DNA from: Gemmatimonadaceae bacterium
GTDB lineage: Bacteria > Gemmatimonadota > Gemmatimonadetes > Gemmatimonadales > Gemmatimonadaceae
Length of the DNA stretch: 64,000 nt
Direction of reading: 5' to 3'
Assembly: GCA_045804265.1 (NCBI GenBank)
Contig: JBJMNK010000116.1
Location: 1,867-65,866 of the forward strand
Shown: positions 14,815 through 63,858 of the stretch, piece after piece
Layout of the letters: every line of letters starts with the position of its first letter
How positions within the stretch are numbered: the first letter of the stretch is position 1
Notes under the pieces: model-generated
What the model was told of the DNA's origin: nothing
The model's input: the letters and a program-made list of their open reading frames with translations, nothing else
Databases searched by the model: none
Position numbers and translations under genes: made by a program

Positions 14815-14895
14815 ATCGCACTCGGCGATGGGCCGCACGAACGACGAACAAGCCGATCGGGCCGCTCACGCCTGACGACGAGAAGGAAGTGAACG

Positions 14896-14953
14896 GGAGG
14901 CACAGAGGGCACAGAGGAGTTCGATCAAAACCCTCTGTGCCCTCTGTGCCTCC
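14896..14953. repeat. Family A palindromic element (22-bp arms GGAGGCACAGAGGGCACAGAGG, 14-nt loop)
   Basis: Perfect inverted repeat between convergent genes. Near-identical copies lie at 40864-40924 and 63251-63313. Confidence 0.8.
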
Positions 14954-15133
14954 TGTGGTTGTGTCGTTGCAGTTCGATCTGCTTCGGTCGTCGCCGCTGC
15001 TTCACGGCGTTCGGTTGCGTGATACCAGGCTGACCAGCCGATCGCCCTTGGTCGCGCGACCAGCCGCAACCGCCCGACTCATGATCTGCTGACGGGGCGC
15101 TGCGCTCTGCCGCCATCCCGCGTGCCTCGCTGC

Positions 15134-36561: not shown

Positions 36562-37263
36562 TCAGGCCGCGACGTGGAACAGCCGGCCGACGCCGGCGGT
36601 GATCGCCATCGCCAGTCCGCCCCACAGTGCAACCCGGAAGGCGCCGACCCATGGCGACGCGCCGCCCGTGCGCGCGGCGACTCCACCGAGCACGGCGAGC
36701 ATCACGATGCTGAAGACGACGACGAGTGGCGTGACGAGCCGCCAGGGTGCGATCGCGGCGAGCAGCACGGGAATGAGCGCGCCGATGGCGAAGCTCACCG
36801 CCGACGCCAGCGCGGCCTGCAGTGGCCGCGCCGAGAGAACTTCCGAGAGGCCGATCTCGTCGCGGGCGTGCGCGCCTAACGCGTCGTGGGCCATCAGCTG
36901 CGTCGCCACCTGCTCGGCAAGGTCGCGCGTGAGGCCACGTCCCTCGTAGATGGCGGTCAGCTCCTCGCGCTCGCCCGGCTCGTTTGCGGCGAGCGCTCGG
37001 CGCTCCACCTCCAGATCGGCGCGCTCGGTGTCGAGCTGCGATCCGACCGACACGTACTCGCCCGCGGCCATCGACATCGTGCCGGCGGCGAGCCCGGCGA
37101 CGGCGGCGGTGAGCACCGCCCCGCGAGCCGCGCTCGCCGCGGCAACGCCGACGATCAGGCTCGACGTCGAGATCAGCCCGTCGTTCGCGCCGAGCACCGC
37201 GGCGCGCAACCAGCCGACGCGGTGCGTGCGGTGCGCTTCACCGTGCATCGTCGATTCCGTCAT
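36562..37263 (-). CDS. VIT1/CCC1 family iron/manganese transporter
   Basis: VLGANDGLISTSSLIVGVA...MAAGEYVSV motifs. ATGA overlap with the upstream acylase stop. Confidence 0.85.
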   Translation of the reverse strand: MTESTMHGEAHRTHRVGWLRAAVLGANDGLISTSSLIVGVAAASAARGAVLTAAVAGLAAGTMSMAAGEYVSVGSQLDTERADLEVERRALAANEPGEREELTAIYEGRGLTRDLAEQVATQLMAHDALGAHARDEIGLSEVLSARPLQAALASAVSFAIGALIPVLLAAIAPWRLVTPLVVVFSIVMLAVLGGVAARTGGASPWVGAFRVALWGGLAMAITAGVGRLFHVAA

Positions 37264-39506
37264 TGGCCCGGATGGTAGGTGCGTTCGGTGTGCCCGACGA
37301 GCTGCGACGGATAGTAATAGACCTCGCGCAGGTTGCCACTGGCGTAGCGGAGCGCTTCGTCGTTGAAGTGCGGCGAGTCGGGGTGGCCACTCTCGCCACC
37401 AGCAGTGACCGCGCGGGCGCGAACGCTGTCGCCGAATTCGACGATCGCGACGAAGCTGTTGCCGCTGGTGCCGTAATACTTCTTCGTCCCCGGGTATCGA
37501 CGCGCGCCGAACGATGCGAGCGATCCCCACTGTGACGAAGTGAACGGGACCGGGATGCTCGGTGCGGCGTCGTTGAACGGCTGGACGATGTCGCCCGTCA
37601 GGCGCTGGAAGCGATTGATATCGCCCCACGGCGTGCGCCAGCTCCCGAAGTCACTCTCGAGGCGCGCCGACGCGTCGGCGAGCGCCTGCAGCTTCTCCTG
37701 CGCCGACATGCGCGTCGCCATGTAGTCGTAGGTGGACATGACCTCGTCGCGCTCTTCGGCGCGGGCGGCGCCCCAGAGTCGCTCGCCCCAGAAGACCGCG
37801 AGCGCGGTCGGTATCGATGTCGCCGACCAGCGGTAGTCCCACGAGCGGAGCAGCGCAACCTGGTCGGCGAGCTTCGCCTTGAGCGGATTCGACGCCGGCG
37901 TCGAGTCATAGGCGGCGGTCAGCGTCGGGATGAGCTGCGCGAACGCCGGGAGATACGAGTCGAATGCGGCGGTGTTGAGCGACGCGGCGGTGAAGTCGTG
38001 CTTGCCCTCGAGCAGCATGCGCGCGTGGATCCCGCGCGGATTCTCGCCGGCGGTGTCCATGTACCTCGGATAATTCTCGCGCTTCGGGCTGTAGGGACCG
38101 GCAGCCGAGTAGGGCCAGTCGTTGGTGTTGAAGATCCAGCCGTTAGGCGGGTTGAGCACGTGCGGCGCCGAGTCGAGCGGGGTGAGTCCCTTCCAGTCGG
38201 TGGCCGGGTCGCTGCCATCCACTGGGCGCGTGTAGTCGAAGCGGGCGTCGCGCCGCGGGATGAACTGCGGGTGGAGGTAGGCGATGTTCCCGCTGGCGTC
38301 GGCAAAGATCGTGTTGTTCGACGAGTTCGCGCGGAGCTGCGCGACCTTGACGAAGGAGATGAAGTCGGTCGCCTTGGTGCGCAGCCACGACTGCTCGAGC
38401 GCGGGCATCGGCGTGTTCATCAGCGCCACGCTGATCCACTTGCCGTTCGCCTCGCGCACGATCGGGCCGTGGTGGGTGCGGTAGACGGTGAAGCGACGTT
38501 GCTGCATGCTGCCGTCGGCGCCACGGTACGGCACCGTTATGACCGAGCTCGTGACCGGGCGTTCCTCGCTTCCATAGCGATAGGTGAGCCGCCCGCCGCG
38601 ATCGGTGATCGTCTCGGCGAATTCGTCGATGACGTCGACCCCGCTCGACGTGTGCATCCAGCCGGCGTGCGCGTTGAAGCCCTGGTAGATGAAGAACTGT
38701 CCCCACGTCGCCGCGCCGTAGGCATCGAGCCCTTCGTCGCTCGACATCTGCAGCTCGGAGCGGAAGAAGAACGACGTGTGCGGGTTGATCAGGAGCAGTG
38801 CGTGGTGGTTCGCGGTGTTGGAGGGGGCGATCGCGATGCCATTGGACCCGGTGGGCTCAGTGAACACCGTACGATCGGGCTCGCTCTCGCGCGCGGCGAG
38901 GAGCGCGCCGTCGTTAGGCGAGGCCATGGCGCCGACCATGTGCTTGCCGTAGAAGGCGCCGAGCTGCGAGATGGAGATGCTCTCGATGTCGCCGCCGATG
39001 CTTCCCTCGCTGAACGAGAGCGCCATCCAGGGCTCGAAACGCGTTATGACGCGGGGCTTCACCGAAGGATGCGTCGCGAGATAGTAATTCAGCCCGTCGG
39101 CCCAGGCGTTCATCAACTGCTGCAGCCAGACGGGACTCGCCGCGTACTGTGCCTTCAGGGTGTCGGGGTCGATGAAGAGCTTCATCCGCAGGTCCTGGTA
39201 GACCGCGGACTCGCCCTCGGCCTCGGCGAGACGGCCCATCGCGTTGATGAAGTTCGTCTCGACGCGATTGAAGTCGTCCTCGGCCTGCGCGTAGATCATC
39301 CCGAACACCGCGTCGGCGTCGGTCTTCCCGTGGACGTGCGCGATCCCCCAGTCGTCGCGGACGATCGTCACGCCCTGCGCGCGTTGCTGAAGGCGAGCGA
39401 GATCCGAGGCAGGCGTGGAGCTCGCAGGGGTGGTCGACGTGGCGACGGGCGCGCAGGCGGCGAGCAGGACGAGTGCGGCGGCTCGCAGGCGAACGGGAAG
39501 ACTCAT
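37260..39506 (-). CDS. Penicillin acylase family (S45 Ntn-hydrolase; AHL-acylase-like) protein
   Basis: Signal peptide. Autoprocessing site and nucleophile context FTEPTGSNGIAIAPSNTANHHALLLINPH. The length of about 750 aa is typical. Confidence 0.85.
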   Translation of the reverse strand: MSLPVRLRAAALVLLAACAPVATSTTPASSTPASDLARLQQRAQGVTIVRDDWGIAHVHGKTDADAVFGMIYAQAEDDFNRVETNFINAMGRLAEAEGESAVYQDLRMKLFIDPDTLKAQYAASPVWLQQLMNAWADGLNYYLATHPSVKPRVITRFEPWMALSFSEGSIGGDIESISISQLGAFYGKHMVGAMASPNDGALLAARESEPDRTVFTEPTGSNGIAIAPSNTANHHALLLINPHTSFFFRSELQMSSDEGLDAYGAATWGQFFIYQGFNAHAGWMHTSSGVDVIDEFAETITDRGGRLTYRYGSEERPVTSSVITVPYRGADGSMQQRRFTVYRTHHGPIVREANGKWISVALMNTPMPALEQSWLRTKATDFISFVKVAQLRANSSNNTIFADASGNIAYLHPQFIPRRDARFDYTRPVDGSDPATDWKGLTPLDSAPHVLNPPNGWIFNTNDWPYSAAGPYSPKRENYPRYMDTAGENPRGIHARMLLEGKHDFTAASLNTAAFDSYLPAFAQLIPTLTAAYDSTPASNPLKAKLADQVALLRSWDYRWSATSIPTALAVFWGERLWGAARAEERDEVMSTYDYMATRMSAQEKLQALADASARLESDFGSWRTPWGDINRFQRLTGDIVQPFNDAAPSIPVPFTSSQWGSLASFGARRYPGTKKYYGTSGNSFVAIVEFGDSVRARAVTAGGESGHPDSPHFNDEALRYASGNLREVYYYPSQLVGHTERTYHPGQ

Positions 39507-39699
39507 GGCGCGGATCGGAGAGGTGAATCGCGAAGCTCGATGGCGTGCGCCAAAGATACGCGCCGATCCCGCGGGTGGCGATTGTCAAAGATCTGGCGCG
39601 TGTTGGACGAGCGTCTTCCGATGCGGATCGAGAGGTATCTCGATCAGCATCGCGATCGCTCAACGGTTACGCGTGCCGGATGGCCGTAACGGTGGAACG

Positions 39700-40041
39700 A
39701 CAATCACGCGGATTACGCGGACTACACGGATCGCTCCTCGACGGGGGAGCTCCATGCGACGGGGCTGAACAATTTGGGGGCACGCGAGGCGAGATCGTCG
39801 CACCCTGCGTGCCCCAATCAGTTCACCCCGCCATCCCGACCTTTGCCCTCGCGGCAGTTCTTAGCGGTGGAAATGAAGTTGCTGATATTCAACAGCTAAT
39901 GAACCGCTGAGAACCGCTGCGCCATTCGAAGGCTCGCGGTCGCATGCAGGCCGAAGCGTTTCGCCGGATGCCGACGACCGGAGCGGAGCCCGGCCCGCCG
40001 GTTGGAGCAATCCGCGTGATCCGCGTAATCCGCGTGATTGT
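39700..40041. repeat. 342-bp MITE-like element with 35-bp terminal inverted repeats built from tandem CACGCGGAT-like 9-mers
   Basis: The left TIR is ACAATCACGCGGATTACGCGGACTACACGGATCGC. The reverse complement of the right TIR is ACAATCACGCGGATTACGCGGATCACGCGGATTGC. An internal hairpin TTGGGGGCACGC...GCGTGCCCCAA lies at 39774-39817. Confidence 0.65.
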
Positions 40042-40113
40042 AGGTCACCCGTTGACCTCCTTCCGCGCGCACGACCACAGGCCGCGCATGCGCCTAACGA
40101 TACAGCCCGCGGG

Positions 40114-40716
40114 TCAGTGCGGCTTGGTCGCTCCTTTCCGCTCCGGCGAGGCGATCGCCTCGAGGAGGAGGCGCTCGAGCTCTTCGTCCTTCGTCTCGGC
40201 CAATCGCGCGGGCGCGCAGGGGAGGCGGCGACGCGCGGGGCGGTCGAGCGACTCGAAGCAGATCCACCCGCGCTGGAATTCGCCGAGGTAATGCTTCGGA
40301 CGCCCGGTGCGCGAGAGCCCGGGGATGACTGGCCACGCCCGCCACTGCTCGCCTCTGCTGTCGCGGAACTCGCGGACAGTGTGTTCACCGAGCTGCTCGC
40401 GGGCATCGTCGAGGTCGGCGAGAAGCGTCGTTTCACGGGCGTCGGCGGAATCCGAGGGTGGTGGGGACTGGTGGGCCTTCTCCTTCTCCTGCTCCTTCGC
40501 CTGATCCTGAGCGATGTGGCGCCGAAGCGAGATCGCTTCACCGGCAGCTACCGCCGCGGCGAGCAGCGAGTCCTCGATCTCGCGGATCTCCGCGCTCGTC
40601 TTGGTGGCGACGCCACCAGCTTCAGCAGCGCAGGCATCGTGCAGCCGGCGCGAGAGCTCGTCTTCCGCTTCCTGAAGAATCGGCTTGAGCTGGTCGTTCT
40701 TCGCGGGTTCGGTCAT
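40114..40716 (-). CDS. Hypothetical protein
   Basis: Open frame with normal codon bias: MTEPAKNDQLKPILQEAEDELSRRLHD...WRAWPVIPG...GWICFESLDRPARRRL. No family name recalled. Confidence 0.5.
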   Translation of the reverse strand: MTEPAKNDQLKPILQEAEDELSRRLHDACAAEAGGVATKTSAEIREIEDSLLAAAVAAGEAISLRRHIAQDQAKEQEKEKAHQSPPPSDSADARETTLLADLDDAREQLGEHTVREFRDSRGEQWRAWPVIPGLSRTGRPKHYLGEFQRGWICFESLDRPARRRLPCAPARLAETKDEELERLLLEAIASPERKGATKPH

Positions 40717-40863
40717 GCGATCCTCAGTACGCGCTCGATTGCAGTGCCCGGCCATTCCGACCAGAAAGAAGTGCAGGGGTCGAGCCAGAATTTGGGGTCA
40801 GGTCACGTATACACCGTGCCTCGCCAAACCAGTCCTGCCCTCCTGATCAACGGATGAATTGAA

Positions 40864-40924
40864 CAGGAGGCACAGAGAGCACAGAGAGGTTTGATCAATC
40901 CCTCTGTGCCCTCTGTGCCTCCTG
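40864..40924. repeat. Family A palindromic element
   Basis: CAGGAGGCACAGAGAGCACAGAGAGG-TTTGATCAATC-CCTCTGTGCCCTCTGTGCCTCCTG. Confidence 0.8.
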
Positions 40925-41174
40925 TGGATTTGCCGTTGAAGTTGCAGGTGCTGTAAGTGATTCAGCTTCTGAGTGCCCTCGCTTCCTCCCGTGATCTGCC
41001 CTTCTCCCAACGTCGCTCTCGATGACTCCGCGCGGCGACGAGGAACCGGCGAGCCGGTGAAGCGGACGACCGGTCATCGTCAGGCCGGCGGACCGGAGAC
41101 GAGTTCGACAGGACGGTTCAGAGCGTACGGTCGCGCGACGGCTGCGATGGCGCGAACCCTCCGCATTTCGTGGA

Positions 41175-50277: not shown

Positions 50278-50320
50278 CGAAAGACTGGCGGTCACTGCTC
50301 TCGGGGGCGAGCAGCGACTG

Positions 50321-50670
50321 TTGCTGCTTGGTTCGTTCGAGCCGTTGGCGTTCTGGTATGTCGGCCTTGGTCCTCAGCATTCGACCGGCGTACAGTCTGC
50401 GGGGGAGGCACCGAGGCACCGAGGGCACCGAGGACTGCACGCCAGACCAGTATCGTTGCGCTACTGCCAAACGACTTGGGGCAAGCAGGTGAGATGGTCT
50501 CGCCCCGCTTGCCCCCAAGCTGTTCGGGGCTGGCGCGAACGGCTCAGCCCCTGCGGGGCTGTCCTCGGTGTCTCGGTGTCTTGCAAGAATAGACTGTCAC
50601 GCAGATGGGATGCTGAGGACAACGGCCGACATACGACGACGCCAGCGGCTCGAACGAATCGATCAGCAAA
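50321..50670. repeat. About 350-bp element with ~110-bp imperfect terminal inverted repeats ending in tandem GGCACCGAG 9-mers
   Basis: The left arm is TTCGTTCGAGCCGTTGGCG...GTATGTCGGCC...TCCTCAGCAT...GGCACCGAGGCACCGAGGGCACCGAGG. It pairs with the right arm CCTCGGTGTCTCGGTGTC...ATGCTGAGGA...GGCCGACATAC...CGGCTCGAACGAA. A central hairpin CTTGGGGCAAGC...GCTTGCCCCCAAG lies at 50475-50519. Confidence 0.65.
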
Positions 50671-50732
50671 AGCCTGAACCCCAGTGCACCCTCGAGCATG
50701 ATCGCTGAGCTTCCGGCTCTTATATTTCGCGT

Positions 50733-63076: not shown

Positions 63077-63157
63077 GGGGGCTCCTCGAGGATGTCGGTG
63101 ATTCGTGTTCCGGAATCAACGGGTCGCGGGTGCGTCCGGTAAGTACCGGGGGAGACG

Positions 63158-63313
63158 GAAGCAACGGCAACAGCATTTCCACAGGAGCCACAGAGGGCGC
63201 AGACCGTCTGGATGAAGTGGCACGACTGAAGCAACGGCAACAGCATTTCCACAGGAGCCACAGAGGGCACAGAGGGGTCTGATCAAACCCTCTGTGCCCT
63301 CTGTGGCTCCTGT
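63158..63313. repeat. Family A palindromic element with a 70-bp-period direct duplication of its left flank and arm
   Basis: GAAGCAACGGCAACAGCATTTCCACAGGAGCCACAGAGGGC occurs at 63158-63199 and again at 63228-63269. The second copy continues into the hairpin ACAGGAGCCACAGAGGGCACAGAGGGG-TCTGATCAAA-CCCTCTGTGCCCTCTGTGGCTCCTGT. Confidence 0.75.
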
Positions 63314-63858
63314 TCAATTCGTGCTCGTTGTCTGTAGTGGGAGGAACGGCTGCTTCGATCTGAGGCTCATCGGTGCCTCGGGCGCACTGGTTGCTCGTCT
63401 TGACCCGCCCTCGCGCCTCCTCACCTCCCGAAACGCGAAACGTCAGCCCCACATCGACAGTCTATCGAATGTGTCCGCCTCTTCGAGCCGGATTCGCCGA
63501 CACGGATCGACGGCTCCCCGGGTCGGGACGCCGAACATCAGACTCCTCCCAACCTCACCCCACATGCGCGAGCTCACCCCCATCTACTCCGCCGCAACGC
63601 CGGCTCGGCTGCGCTCGACGCTCGTGGGATTCCTCGCGCTGATGCTCGCGCTCGGCGTCGTCGCATCGATCGCCAGCGTCTGACGCTCGCCGCGCGGCCC
63701 GCGTGTCCCGGGTCGCCGCACGTTAGGCAGCCGATGACCGGAAAATGTGAGCTGCGCCCACTTGTGAAGACAGTGGCCGCCTGGCGATCATGATCACTCT
63801 CGTCGCGGAAGGCGCGCGAGCTCACCAGAGTGGAGATGCGGGAATGGAACGGCGACTG

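Follow-up and report, generated by a model that had tools for sequence, protein, structure and literature searches.

A shared core palindrome in nested miniature elements of one genus of Gemmatimonadaceae: a candidate site for recombination and permuted integration

The window analysed here is a 64,000-nucleotide stretch (C116:1867-65866) of G000, a draft genome of 3.99 Mb in 159 contigs (67.6% G+C) that belongs to a genus of uncultured soil Gemmatimonadaceae, of which 12 genomes were compared. Two inverted-repeat elements in the window, element 1 (39577-40105) and element 2 (50306-50674), carry different arms around the same core hairpin or palindrome, which is referred to as H. With a probability that we put at about 0.6, such elements are selfish, self-nesting mosaic palindromes restricted to this genus, similar to miniature inverted-repeat transposable elements (MITEs) and bacterial interspersed mosaic elements (BIMEs), in which H would act as a shared cis site for recombination and integration. 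This reading was reached by comparing H copies, their arms and their sites among the genomes of the genus.

Analysis of the window from its sequence alone (the sequence-only reading) had described two elements of about 340 bp with a homologous central hairpin between unrelated arms, and this description was upheld. H is located where it had been placed, at 39774-39817 in element 1 (H1) and at 50476-50518 in element 2 (H2). The two copies were identical at 35 of 45 positions (78%), or at 37 of 44 (84%) when compared with the reverse complement, and their local score had a z of 10.6 against shuffles, whereas the four arm-to-arm comparisons gave z values of -0.8 to 0.5. The proposed extents were correct only in part: the inverted arms are present, but element 1 is larger than had been drawn and asymmetric, with a repeated block at 39574-40111 and 39577-40105 as the likely inserted unit. 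The inverted arms of element 1 (50 nt, 84% complementary) consist of CACGCGGAT-like 9-nt units; those of element 2 comprise outer arms of 74 nt (81% complementary) and inner GGCACCGAG units. Each element folds as one very long hairpin, with a z against shuffles of -9.7 for element 1 and -15.4 for element 2.

The consensus of H is TTGGGGCACGCGTGGTGAGATGATCTCACCACGCGTGCCCCAA (43 nt), which forms a stable stem of 18-20 bp. In 33 aligned copies, conserved feet (GAAC-NN-CTT/GGGG … CCCC/AAG-NN-GTTC) extend it to approximately 63 nt; the feet have the form (C/T)NGAAC on one side and GTTC(A/G)G(C/G) on the other. The centre is two-fold symmetric (GAGAT-N-ATCTC), the "loop" being itself palindromic, and both strands of H scored alike in the profile search described below.

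A pattern search of G000 revealed 16 TTGGGG…CCCCAA palindromes of the H type. These were used to build a profile, and an nhmmer search of G000 (threshold E<1e-3) then identified 40 H loci (best E 7e-13), all of which were intergenic according to a simple gene call based on G+C content at third codon positions. The surrounding genes were convergent in 9 cases, in tandem in 15 and divergent in 3, and many copies were located just past stop codons. Searches beyond G000 were carried out with a covariance model built from the 33 aligned copies. The sequence-only reading had looked to such a search for further instances, and these were found: H was detected in 12/12 congeneric genomes, the number of strand-hits per genome ranging from 13 to at least 130. 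Chance palindromy, considered as an explanation for the similarity of the two hairpins, was rejected on the basis of the 40 loci and of E values reaching the order of 1e-13 with nhmmer and 1e-23 with the covariance model.

Outside the genus H was essentially missing. Apart from one weak match, the covariance model did not detect it in 28 other relatives. In a separate sample of 251 genomes of the family (7 congeneric, 76 other genera), it was found in all seven congeneric genomes, with a single match among the 76 other genera. A public scan was also carried out with an exact pattern of 18 fixed bases, using one genome per species (596 Gb). Every record with multiple matches was a metagenome-assembled genome (MAG) named "Gemmatimonadaceae bacterium", several of them labelled as soil MAGs, and the scattered single matches elsewhere were close to the number expected by chance. 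The literature collection that was searched contained no account of such repeats in Gemmatimonadota.

The anatomy of the elements was determined by clustering the 190-nt flanks of all H copies, mapping short diagnostic motifs genome-wide and reading the sequences. The elements are 260-540 nt long, with terminal inverted repeats and no coding capacity, and their arms follow one design, a terminal motif followed by two to five tandem 8-9-mers. Arms of the a type (CACGCGGAT 9-nt units, 68 matches to the unit pair in G000) are present in about 24 H-bearing elements and form the ends of element 1. The b arms (GGCACCGAG units) were found in element 2 and four or five others, the c arms (CCGCTGAGAACTGCCGCG ends) in about five elements, and the k arms are built of GGCACAGAG units. 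In total, H was at the centre of at least seven arm clusters in G000, most of them built of tandem 8-9-mers, including singleton arm types (C5_7185, C71_3610, C142_12891 and C32_6521), so that the earlier description of a conserved core between variable arms holds well beyond the two elements in the window. Sister species place H between other 8-9-mer units still (AAAAAGAGT, GTCACGGAG, GACGCAGAG and CCACGGAGG). Chimeras, with H between arms of two types, were found at C155_30852 and C70_298 and in element 1. The inner arms differ on the two sides of H, being i2/i3 in family A, i4/i1 in family B and i6/i5 in family C, and i1 accompanies H into different outer arms (C5_7185, C70_298, L003, L004, L064, L088 and L119).

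Every arm type was also found without H. Seven loci had a>a< pairs that enclosed unrelated unique interiors, one H-free b>b< pair had a 40-nt centre, and an H-free c>c< pair was directly abutted. Simple k palindromes lacking H were present in 27 copies in G000, three of them within the window, and a single k-armed copy carried H (C71:3540-3700). One of the k palindromes in the window (40856-40945) gave sub-threshold Rfam matches to plant microRNA precursors at E<=1 (22-29 bits against cut-offs of 62-96), which are an artefact of any long perfect hairpin.

Conservation within the elements was assessed as mean pairwise column identity in a profile of 20 oriented copies of family A. Two parts are constrained, the unit arrays (9-mer arms, 0.83-0.92) and H (0.77-0.91), and the remainder is drifting (inner arms, 0.45-0.71; outer module, about 0.5). 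The core is consequently kept better than the inner arms beside it, and because H and the 9-mer arrays are the conserved parts, they are suggested to be the parts required in cis.

Exchange at H is suggested by the structure of element 1. Its H was only 78% self-complementary, compared with about 90% family-wide, and its halves had different affinities: the left half had one mismatch to the A-type consensus, and the right half (TCGCACCC) had one mismatch to the C-type variant of C8/C131 and three to the A type. To the left of H the element is a normal A-type element, with outer module m, arm a> and inner arm i2. To the right, the order is i5, c<, a 36-nt spacer x, c> and i6, with no second H, followed by the A-type i3 and a<. 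H is off centre because this second, C-type piece occupies 39818-39965. A regular C-type element reads c>-i6-H-i5-c<, and the piece is best read as a circular permutation of such an element, in which the ends have been joined and the break lies at H. Consistent with this assignment, the i5 and c< segment shared 83% identity with the stretch that follows H on its right in C131:7208-7300 and in C8, the spacer resembles C-type flanks (…GCGG-TNCAATTGCAGTTGC / GCAAC…TGAA-CCGC), and the c> and i6 segment matched C5:17186-17228, C139:14818-14865 and copies in G004, G005 and G008. The exact "c< x c>" piece with the same spacer was found nowhere else; only its two halves are repeated, and there is an analogous layout on contig C28 of G004.

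That layout reads outer arm-i1-H-[i5 c< x c> i6]-H'-i1-outer arm. The H copy here is perfect, and H' combines the degenerate left half typical of a C-type H beside i6 with a good right half, as predicted if a host H and a C-type H crossed over at their centres. A further composite, b>-i1-H-[iX k'< x k'> iY]-H-i1-b<, was found at five loci from MAGs of the genus, the outer arms of which match each other (local scores of 59-74 over approximately 115 nt). The intervals between paired H copies (180-300 nt) are non-coding palindromes. In G004, palindromes of approximately 680 nt have the layout outer-i1-H-[m a> cargo a<]-H-i1-outer, and at L140, k>-H-k< units are arrayed head to tail with their ends abutted. 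Both of the crossovers that could be placed fall in the central few bases of H, a number (n = 2) too small to separate homologous from site-specific exchange.

Near-perfect palindromes of approximately 680 nt were noted on three contigs of SMAG_U5915 (L064:734-1428, L088:1335-2014 and L119:2276-2962). They have three nesting levels, namely outer 8-9-mer arms, two H copies and a central A-type element, and as RNA they are predicted to fold with -358 to -453 kcal/mol.

These layouts suggest the following scheme. H is the only homology common to the families, and elements would swap halves at H. Circles or head-to-tail dimers would act as donors, and from them an H-bearing guest, its ends now joined, would enter the H of another element circularly permuted. 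The product would read host-left, H, permuted guest, H, host-right, and one H may later be lost. Element 2 would be a plain B-type element; element 1 would have begun as an A-type insertion between two genes, into whose H a permuted C-type element was then taken up, with the second H being lost. Recombination at H could be either homologous, over 43-63 bp, or site-specific.

Evidence for gain and loss came from orthologous sites in the genus. Element 1 is located between a penicillin-amidase gene (37260-39506, minus strand) and a conserved open reading frame (ORF) of 213 codons (40114-40755, minus strand). In G011 and G007 the flanks of this site abut without an element and with one related copy of CCCGCGGGT; in G000 CCCGCGGGT is present at both edges of element 1, as a candidate 9-bp target duplication. 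Element 2 is upstream of a truncated-globin gene. Its site is empty in G001, G010 and G006, where a divergent gene abuts the globin gene, and is occupied in G007 and G004 by different mosaics, one with a decayed H; the G007 copy is a one-H derivative of the b>/k' composite. In a search of the genus with 5.6 kb of concatenated flanks, covering 14 elements, three further A-type copies were missing in three to four species each and a fourth site was variably occupied, with intergenic DNA at these four sites too diverged to place the junctions. The sequence-only reading had taken the core to be a functional cargo rather than part of simple selfish repeats. This view was not sustained, given the restriction to one genus, the dispersed intergenic locations, the presence and absence at sites, the chimeras and the nested and permuted insertions.

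Two observations relate to these sites. Approximately 80 nt, an operon-like spacing, lie between the penicillin-amidase gene and the 213-codon ORF in G011 and G007; in G000 the 529-bp element 1, a very stable hairpin, parts them and may have a polar effect on the amidase gene. At C34:19766-23584 of G000, three A-type H elements occur within 4 kb, one in each of three consecutive intergenic gaps, the first two of them missing in three to four sister species and the third site variably occupied across species.

Several points weigh against the view that the elements are mobile units that recombine at H. Only one candidate target duplication was seen, the 9 bp at element 1; other filled and empty junctions were too diverged to read, and no target duplication was visible at five B-type copies. 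No mobilising enzyme for the H elements was found, nor any autonomous element: no pairs of a, b, c or k ends 0.5-6 kb apart enclosed one, and G000 contained no internal repeat of more than 400 bp, just contig-end overlaps. The absence of an autonomous element is weak evidence, since draft MAGs usually lose such copies. Independent integration events number just about three or four, because several of the permuted composites are themselves amplified families, and both element 1 and the G007 globin copy require an extra step, the loss of one H. Instead of selection, gene conversion among the 40 copies could also account for the conservation of H. Family members are old, with identities of only about 70-87%, so that any current mobility is hypothetical.

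An alternative with no recombination at H is that H and its inner arms form a separate tiny mobile palindrome, which inserts at the apex of existing arm palindromes. The empty palindromes found for every arm type, above all the 27 simple k copies against one with H, are as expected if this were so, as is the movement of i1 with H into different outer arms. However, it leaves unexplained the inside-out guests, with their ends joined, between two H copies, the half-and-half H of element 1 and the predicted degenerate half of H' in G004, and no solo H with defined ends or a target duplication was seen; we regard it as unlikely. We are equally doubtful about a more specific form of exchange at H, in which H would be an att-like crossover site of a dedicated recombination activity specific for hairpins or palindromes, putatively a tyrosine recombinase (integron-type integrases included), with H-bearing elements excised as circles and then integrated, permuted, into the H of other elements. 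If it were true, this would be a cassette-like system made of non-coding palindromes only, and it would account for the Russian-doll structures of up to 680 nt.

Alternatively, H might be the domesticated target of a DNA-binding protein of the host, the arms being incidental; nucleoid-associated proteins, gyrase and factors of replication or segregation are examples of such proteins, and host-protein binding has been proposed for some repetitive extragenic palindromic (REP) and BIME elements. The two-fold symmetry through the centre, the conservation of H above neighbouring sequence and its presence throughout the genus agree with this proposal. Against it, copy number varies about tenfold among species, H sites are gained and lost at orthologous positions, H is always within other repeat modules and never alone, and no candidate protein was found, so that the proposal appears distinctly unlikely. 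A functional part in a structured RNA, either a small RNA or a hairpin that stabilises or terminates mRNA, is a little less probable again. In its favour are the stable stem and the location of many copies just past stop codons. Pairing in the H alignment also speaks for it: 89.7% of cells are paired, there is clear compensation at one pair (C-G in 21 copies, A-U in 8, separating A-type from B-type variants), and both the paired percentage and the covariation score exceeded all 500 shuffles. The compensatory change that the sequence-only reading had proposed to look for is clear for this one pair, but the counts of pairs and of pair types with double changes were not above shuffles (123/500 and 128/500, respectively). 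Pairing in H is maintained; the alignment does not tell whether at the level of DNA or of RNA, and DNA palindromes retain pairing without any RNA.

Other results were also unfavourable to an RNA. Rfam 15 gave no gathering-level match in the window and nothing on either element at E<=1, and a scan of the elements found no sigma-70-like promoter or U-tract terminator in H or its arms. Both orientations of H occur, and for 14 elements between co-directional genes the sense strand folded no better than the antisense strand (6/14 negative, mean +1.5 kcal/mol). The restriction of H to one genus and the palindromic "loop" are further points, and two-fold symmetry through the centre is required by a dimeric DNA site or by a junction of two ends, not by an RNA loop. 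On these sequences, a structured RNA for H finds no support, and no new RNA gene or cellular function is revealed; H has more the look of a recombination or recognition site in DNA than of an RNA gene. The sequence-only reading had offered a small structured RNA or a protein-binding site, and it is the second of these that is the likelier.

The least probable of the alternatives, by some distance, is that H is a REP sequence, or a REP doublet (REPIN), mobilised by the REP-associated tyrosine transposase (RAYT) of the genome. REP sequences are imperfect palindromes of 20-40 nt; H resembles them as a short, high-copy, extragenic palindrome (43 nt, 40 loci), and in both systems larger hairpin-capable doublets occur (PMC3116915, PMC3733652, PMC5581495). 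REP/REPIN-RAYT systems are generally proposed to rely on a single-copy enzyme that mobilises the repeats in trans (PMC3116915, PMC3733652, PMC5581495). G000 has a single RAYT-like Y1 transposase gene (C124:33044-33799; with flanks, L001:1341-2257 = C124:32923-33839) that encodes 252 aa. The product scored above the cut-off for Pfam Y1_Tnp (55.5 bits), and its best NCBIfam match was REP_Tyr_transpos, at 68.7 bits and below the cut-off of 80. The H foot AACGACTT also weakly resembles a repeat that flanks the gene, AACGACTC. However, the gene is flanked on both sides by GGGGTCAGAGTCGTTGAA doublets around a small hairpin, and there was no H match on C124. The RAYT-linked GGGGTCAGAGTCGTTGAA repeat, which is present in 56 copies in G000 and often beside a- or k-type elements, differs in sequence from H. 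REP palindromes carry a conserved GTAG or CGTC tetranucleotide at one foot (PMC3733652), and no such tag was present at the H foot in the 33 aligned copies. RAYT homologues were found in only 2/12 congeneric genomes and in three other genera without H (MAGs 72-100% complete), and so are not co-distributed with H. The RAYT explanation is thus contradicted on three defining features, namely flank, tag and distribution.

Integron-type integrases were the other enzyme candidates. A gene matching TIGR02249 above cut-off was found in 8/12 congeneric genomes and in 27/41 genomes across the order. Like H, integron attC sites are imperfect palindromes and occur in site-unit-site arrays, attC sites integrate circular units, and integrase genes are present in the genus. 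attC sites have core sites at the palindrome ends, R'' (RYYYAAC) and R' (GTTRRRY). By contrast, the H feet are GAAC…GTTC; position 4 of GTTCRGY is a C, where the GTTRRRY core requires a purine. In addition, the H stem has no consistent extrahelical bases. Arrays of attC sites adjoin an integron integrase gene and separate promoterless ORF cassettes; the H units have no ORF, and H is dispersed among housekeeping genes. In six genomes, the surroundings of intI were free of H out to 1.5 kb. A link to integrons was rejected, since intI is order-wide and H genus-only, and H is not near intI. The G000 copy of the integrase gene (C50:6617-7192, L176:3618-4193) covers model positions 123-314 only and scored 254 bits, just under cut-off; contigs that carry intI are short, which would be the case if assemblies broke at cassette arrays.

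Among the other known systems that come close are the BIMEs of enterobacteria, for which binding by host proteins (IHF, gyrase, Pol I) is a further character. Like them, the H system consists of intergenic mosaics that combine a short palindrome with other conserved motifs in several arrangements, with arrays of alternating palindromes, many copies and a lineage-restricted distribution (for REP background, PMC3337134, PMC3116915). The H mosaics differ in being much longer (350-680 nt) near-perfect nested palindromes and in having tandem 8-9-mer arms as the partners of H. MITEs, including nested ones, are likewise small and non-coding with inverted ends; their occupancy of orthologous sites varies, they can insert into each other, and they interrupt draft assemblies. 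The H elements answer to the definition of MITEs in part, through their inverted ends, small size and insertion polymorphism, but no parent element or cognate transposase was found, target duplication was seen at most once, the best-kept internal part is a central palindrome common to families with unrelated ends, and guests are circularly permuted. The pdif (XerC/D) modules of Acinetobacter plasmids resemble the H system in that short near-symmetric sites bound modules in varied contexts and orientations; however, H lacks the 11-6-11 layout of dif and its modules are non-coding chromosomal palindromes. Very small dispersed repeats (SDRs) of cyanobacteria (Nostoc) are also tiny palindromes within other repeats or hairpins, with conserved structure. 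SDRs of Nostoc and other cyanobacteria, described by Elhai et al. in 2008, are reportedly about 21-27 nt long and located in heptamer tandem arrays, and to our knowledge permuted whole-element integration has not been described for them. What appears to be new here is permuted integration at a shared palindrome, which we infer from a handful of structures; otherwise the system resembles BIMEs and nested MITEs, with a hint of cassette integration at a palindrome.

Table 1. Features of elements 1 and 2 and of the simple k palindromes in the window.
Feature	Position	Strand	Remarks
Candidate target-site duplication, left copy CCCGCGGGT	39568-39576	.	Same 9-mer at 40106-40114
Outer module m of A-type element	39577-39687	+	Common to G000 C111:25717-, C85:439-566 (91%) and C30
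Left terminal inverted repeat a>	39688-39737	+	Terminal GGTGGAACGACAAT and three CACGCGGAT-like 9-mers
A-type inner arm i2 (…GCTCCATGCGACGGGGCTGAACAATT)	39738-39773	+	Aligns with left inner arm of family A
Core H, chimeric	39774-39817	.	Left half A-type, right half (TCGCACCC…) C-type
C-type inner arm i5 and end c<	39818-39867	+	CGCGGCAGTTCTTAGCGG at 39850-39867
Spacer x	39868-39903	+	Putative abutted outer termini of C-type element
C-type end c> (CCGCTGAGAACCGCTGCG) and inner arm i6	39904-39965	+	Expected second H missing after i6
A-type inner arm i3 (AAGCGTTTCGCCGGATGCCGACGA…)	39966-40003	+	Aligns with right inner arm of family A
Right terminal inverted repeat a<	40004-40053	-	Pairs with 39688-39737
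Outer right module of A-type element	40054-40105	+	Common to C30:74054-, C136:2348- and C114
Candidate target-site duplication, right copy CCCGCGGGT	40106-40114	.	Last T begins stop codon of minus-strand ORF 40114-40755
Complete B-type element, repeated block	50306-50674	.
B-type outer left arm	50318-50391	+	Pairs with 50599-50672
Tandem GGCACCGAG units b>	50405-50433	+	Pair with 50560-50581
B-type left inner arm i4	50434-50475	+
Core H, B-type variant	50476-50518	.	CAAGC…GCTTG, centre GATGGTC; covariance model 68.4 bits, E 3.5e-20
Inner arm i1 (AAGCTGTTCGGGGCTGGCGCGAACGGCTCAGCCCC…)	50519-50559	+	Travels with H into several different outer arms
B-type outer right arm	50599-50672	-	Pairs with 50318-50391
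Simple k palindrome, no H	14886-14960	.	Inverted-repeat analysis
Simple k palindrome, no H	40856-40945	.	GGCACAGAG units, GATCAA centre; same arm design but empty
Simple k palindrome, no H	63231-63320	.	Partial tandem copy at 63154-63216

Full-length relatives of element 2, at 73-77% identity, were present in G000 (C26, C2, C32 and C127), G007 and G002. The right outer module of element 1 contains the 8-mer GCCTAACG (40092-40099), which together with its complement occurs 3479 times in the whole genome (0.87 per kb). This 8-mer contains the classic integron core-site consensus (GCCTAAC / GTTAGGC), possibly by coincidence; the degenerate left half of H in C-type copies contains CGTTAGGC. A sequence resembling a tRNA gene (GGGGCCCTTAGCTCAGCTGG…TTCGAACCCCGCAGGGCCCA, putative) was noted at C111:25560-25640 of G000, to the left of the element at C111:25712-26070, and ends approximately 70 nt before it. 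Seventeen pairs of G000 contig ends have 400-840 bp in common, with 85-98% identity (for example C2/C14, C96/C140 and C8/C131), and several of these ends terminate in H elements. The overlaps suggest assembly breaks at repeats together with some strain heterogeneity in the MAG.

If the proposed exchange and integration at H are correct, one short shared palindrome would tie together otherwise unrelated miniature elements, allowing them to swap halves and to nest, and perfect palindromes of several hundred bases would be built in this way beside ordinary genes. This process would explain the fragmentation of MAGs at H sites, and the H-insert-H junctions would constitute a natural set for testing recombination at a hairpin site. 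It would also bear on how mosaics of the REP and BIME type are assembled.

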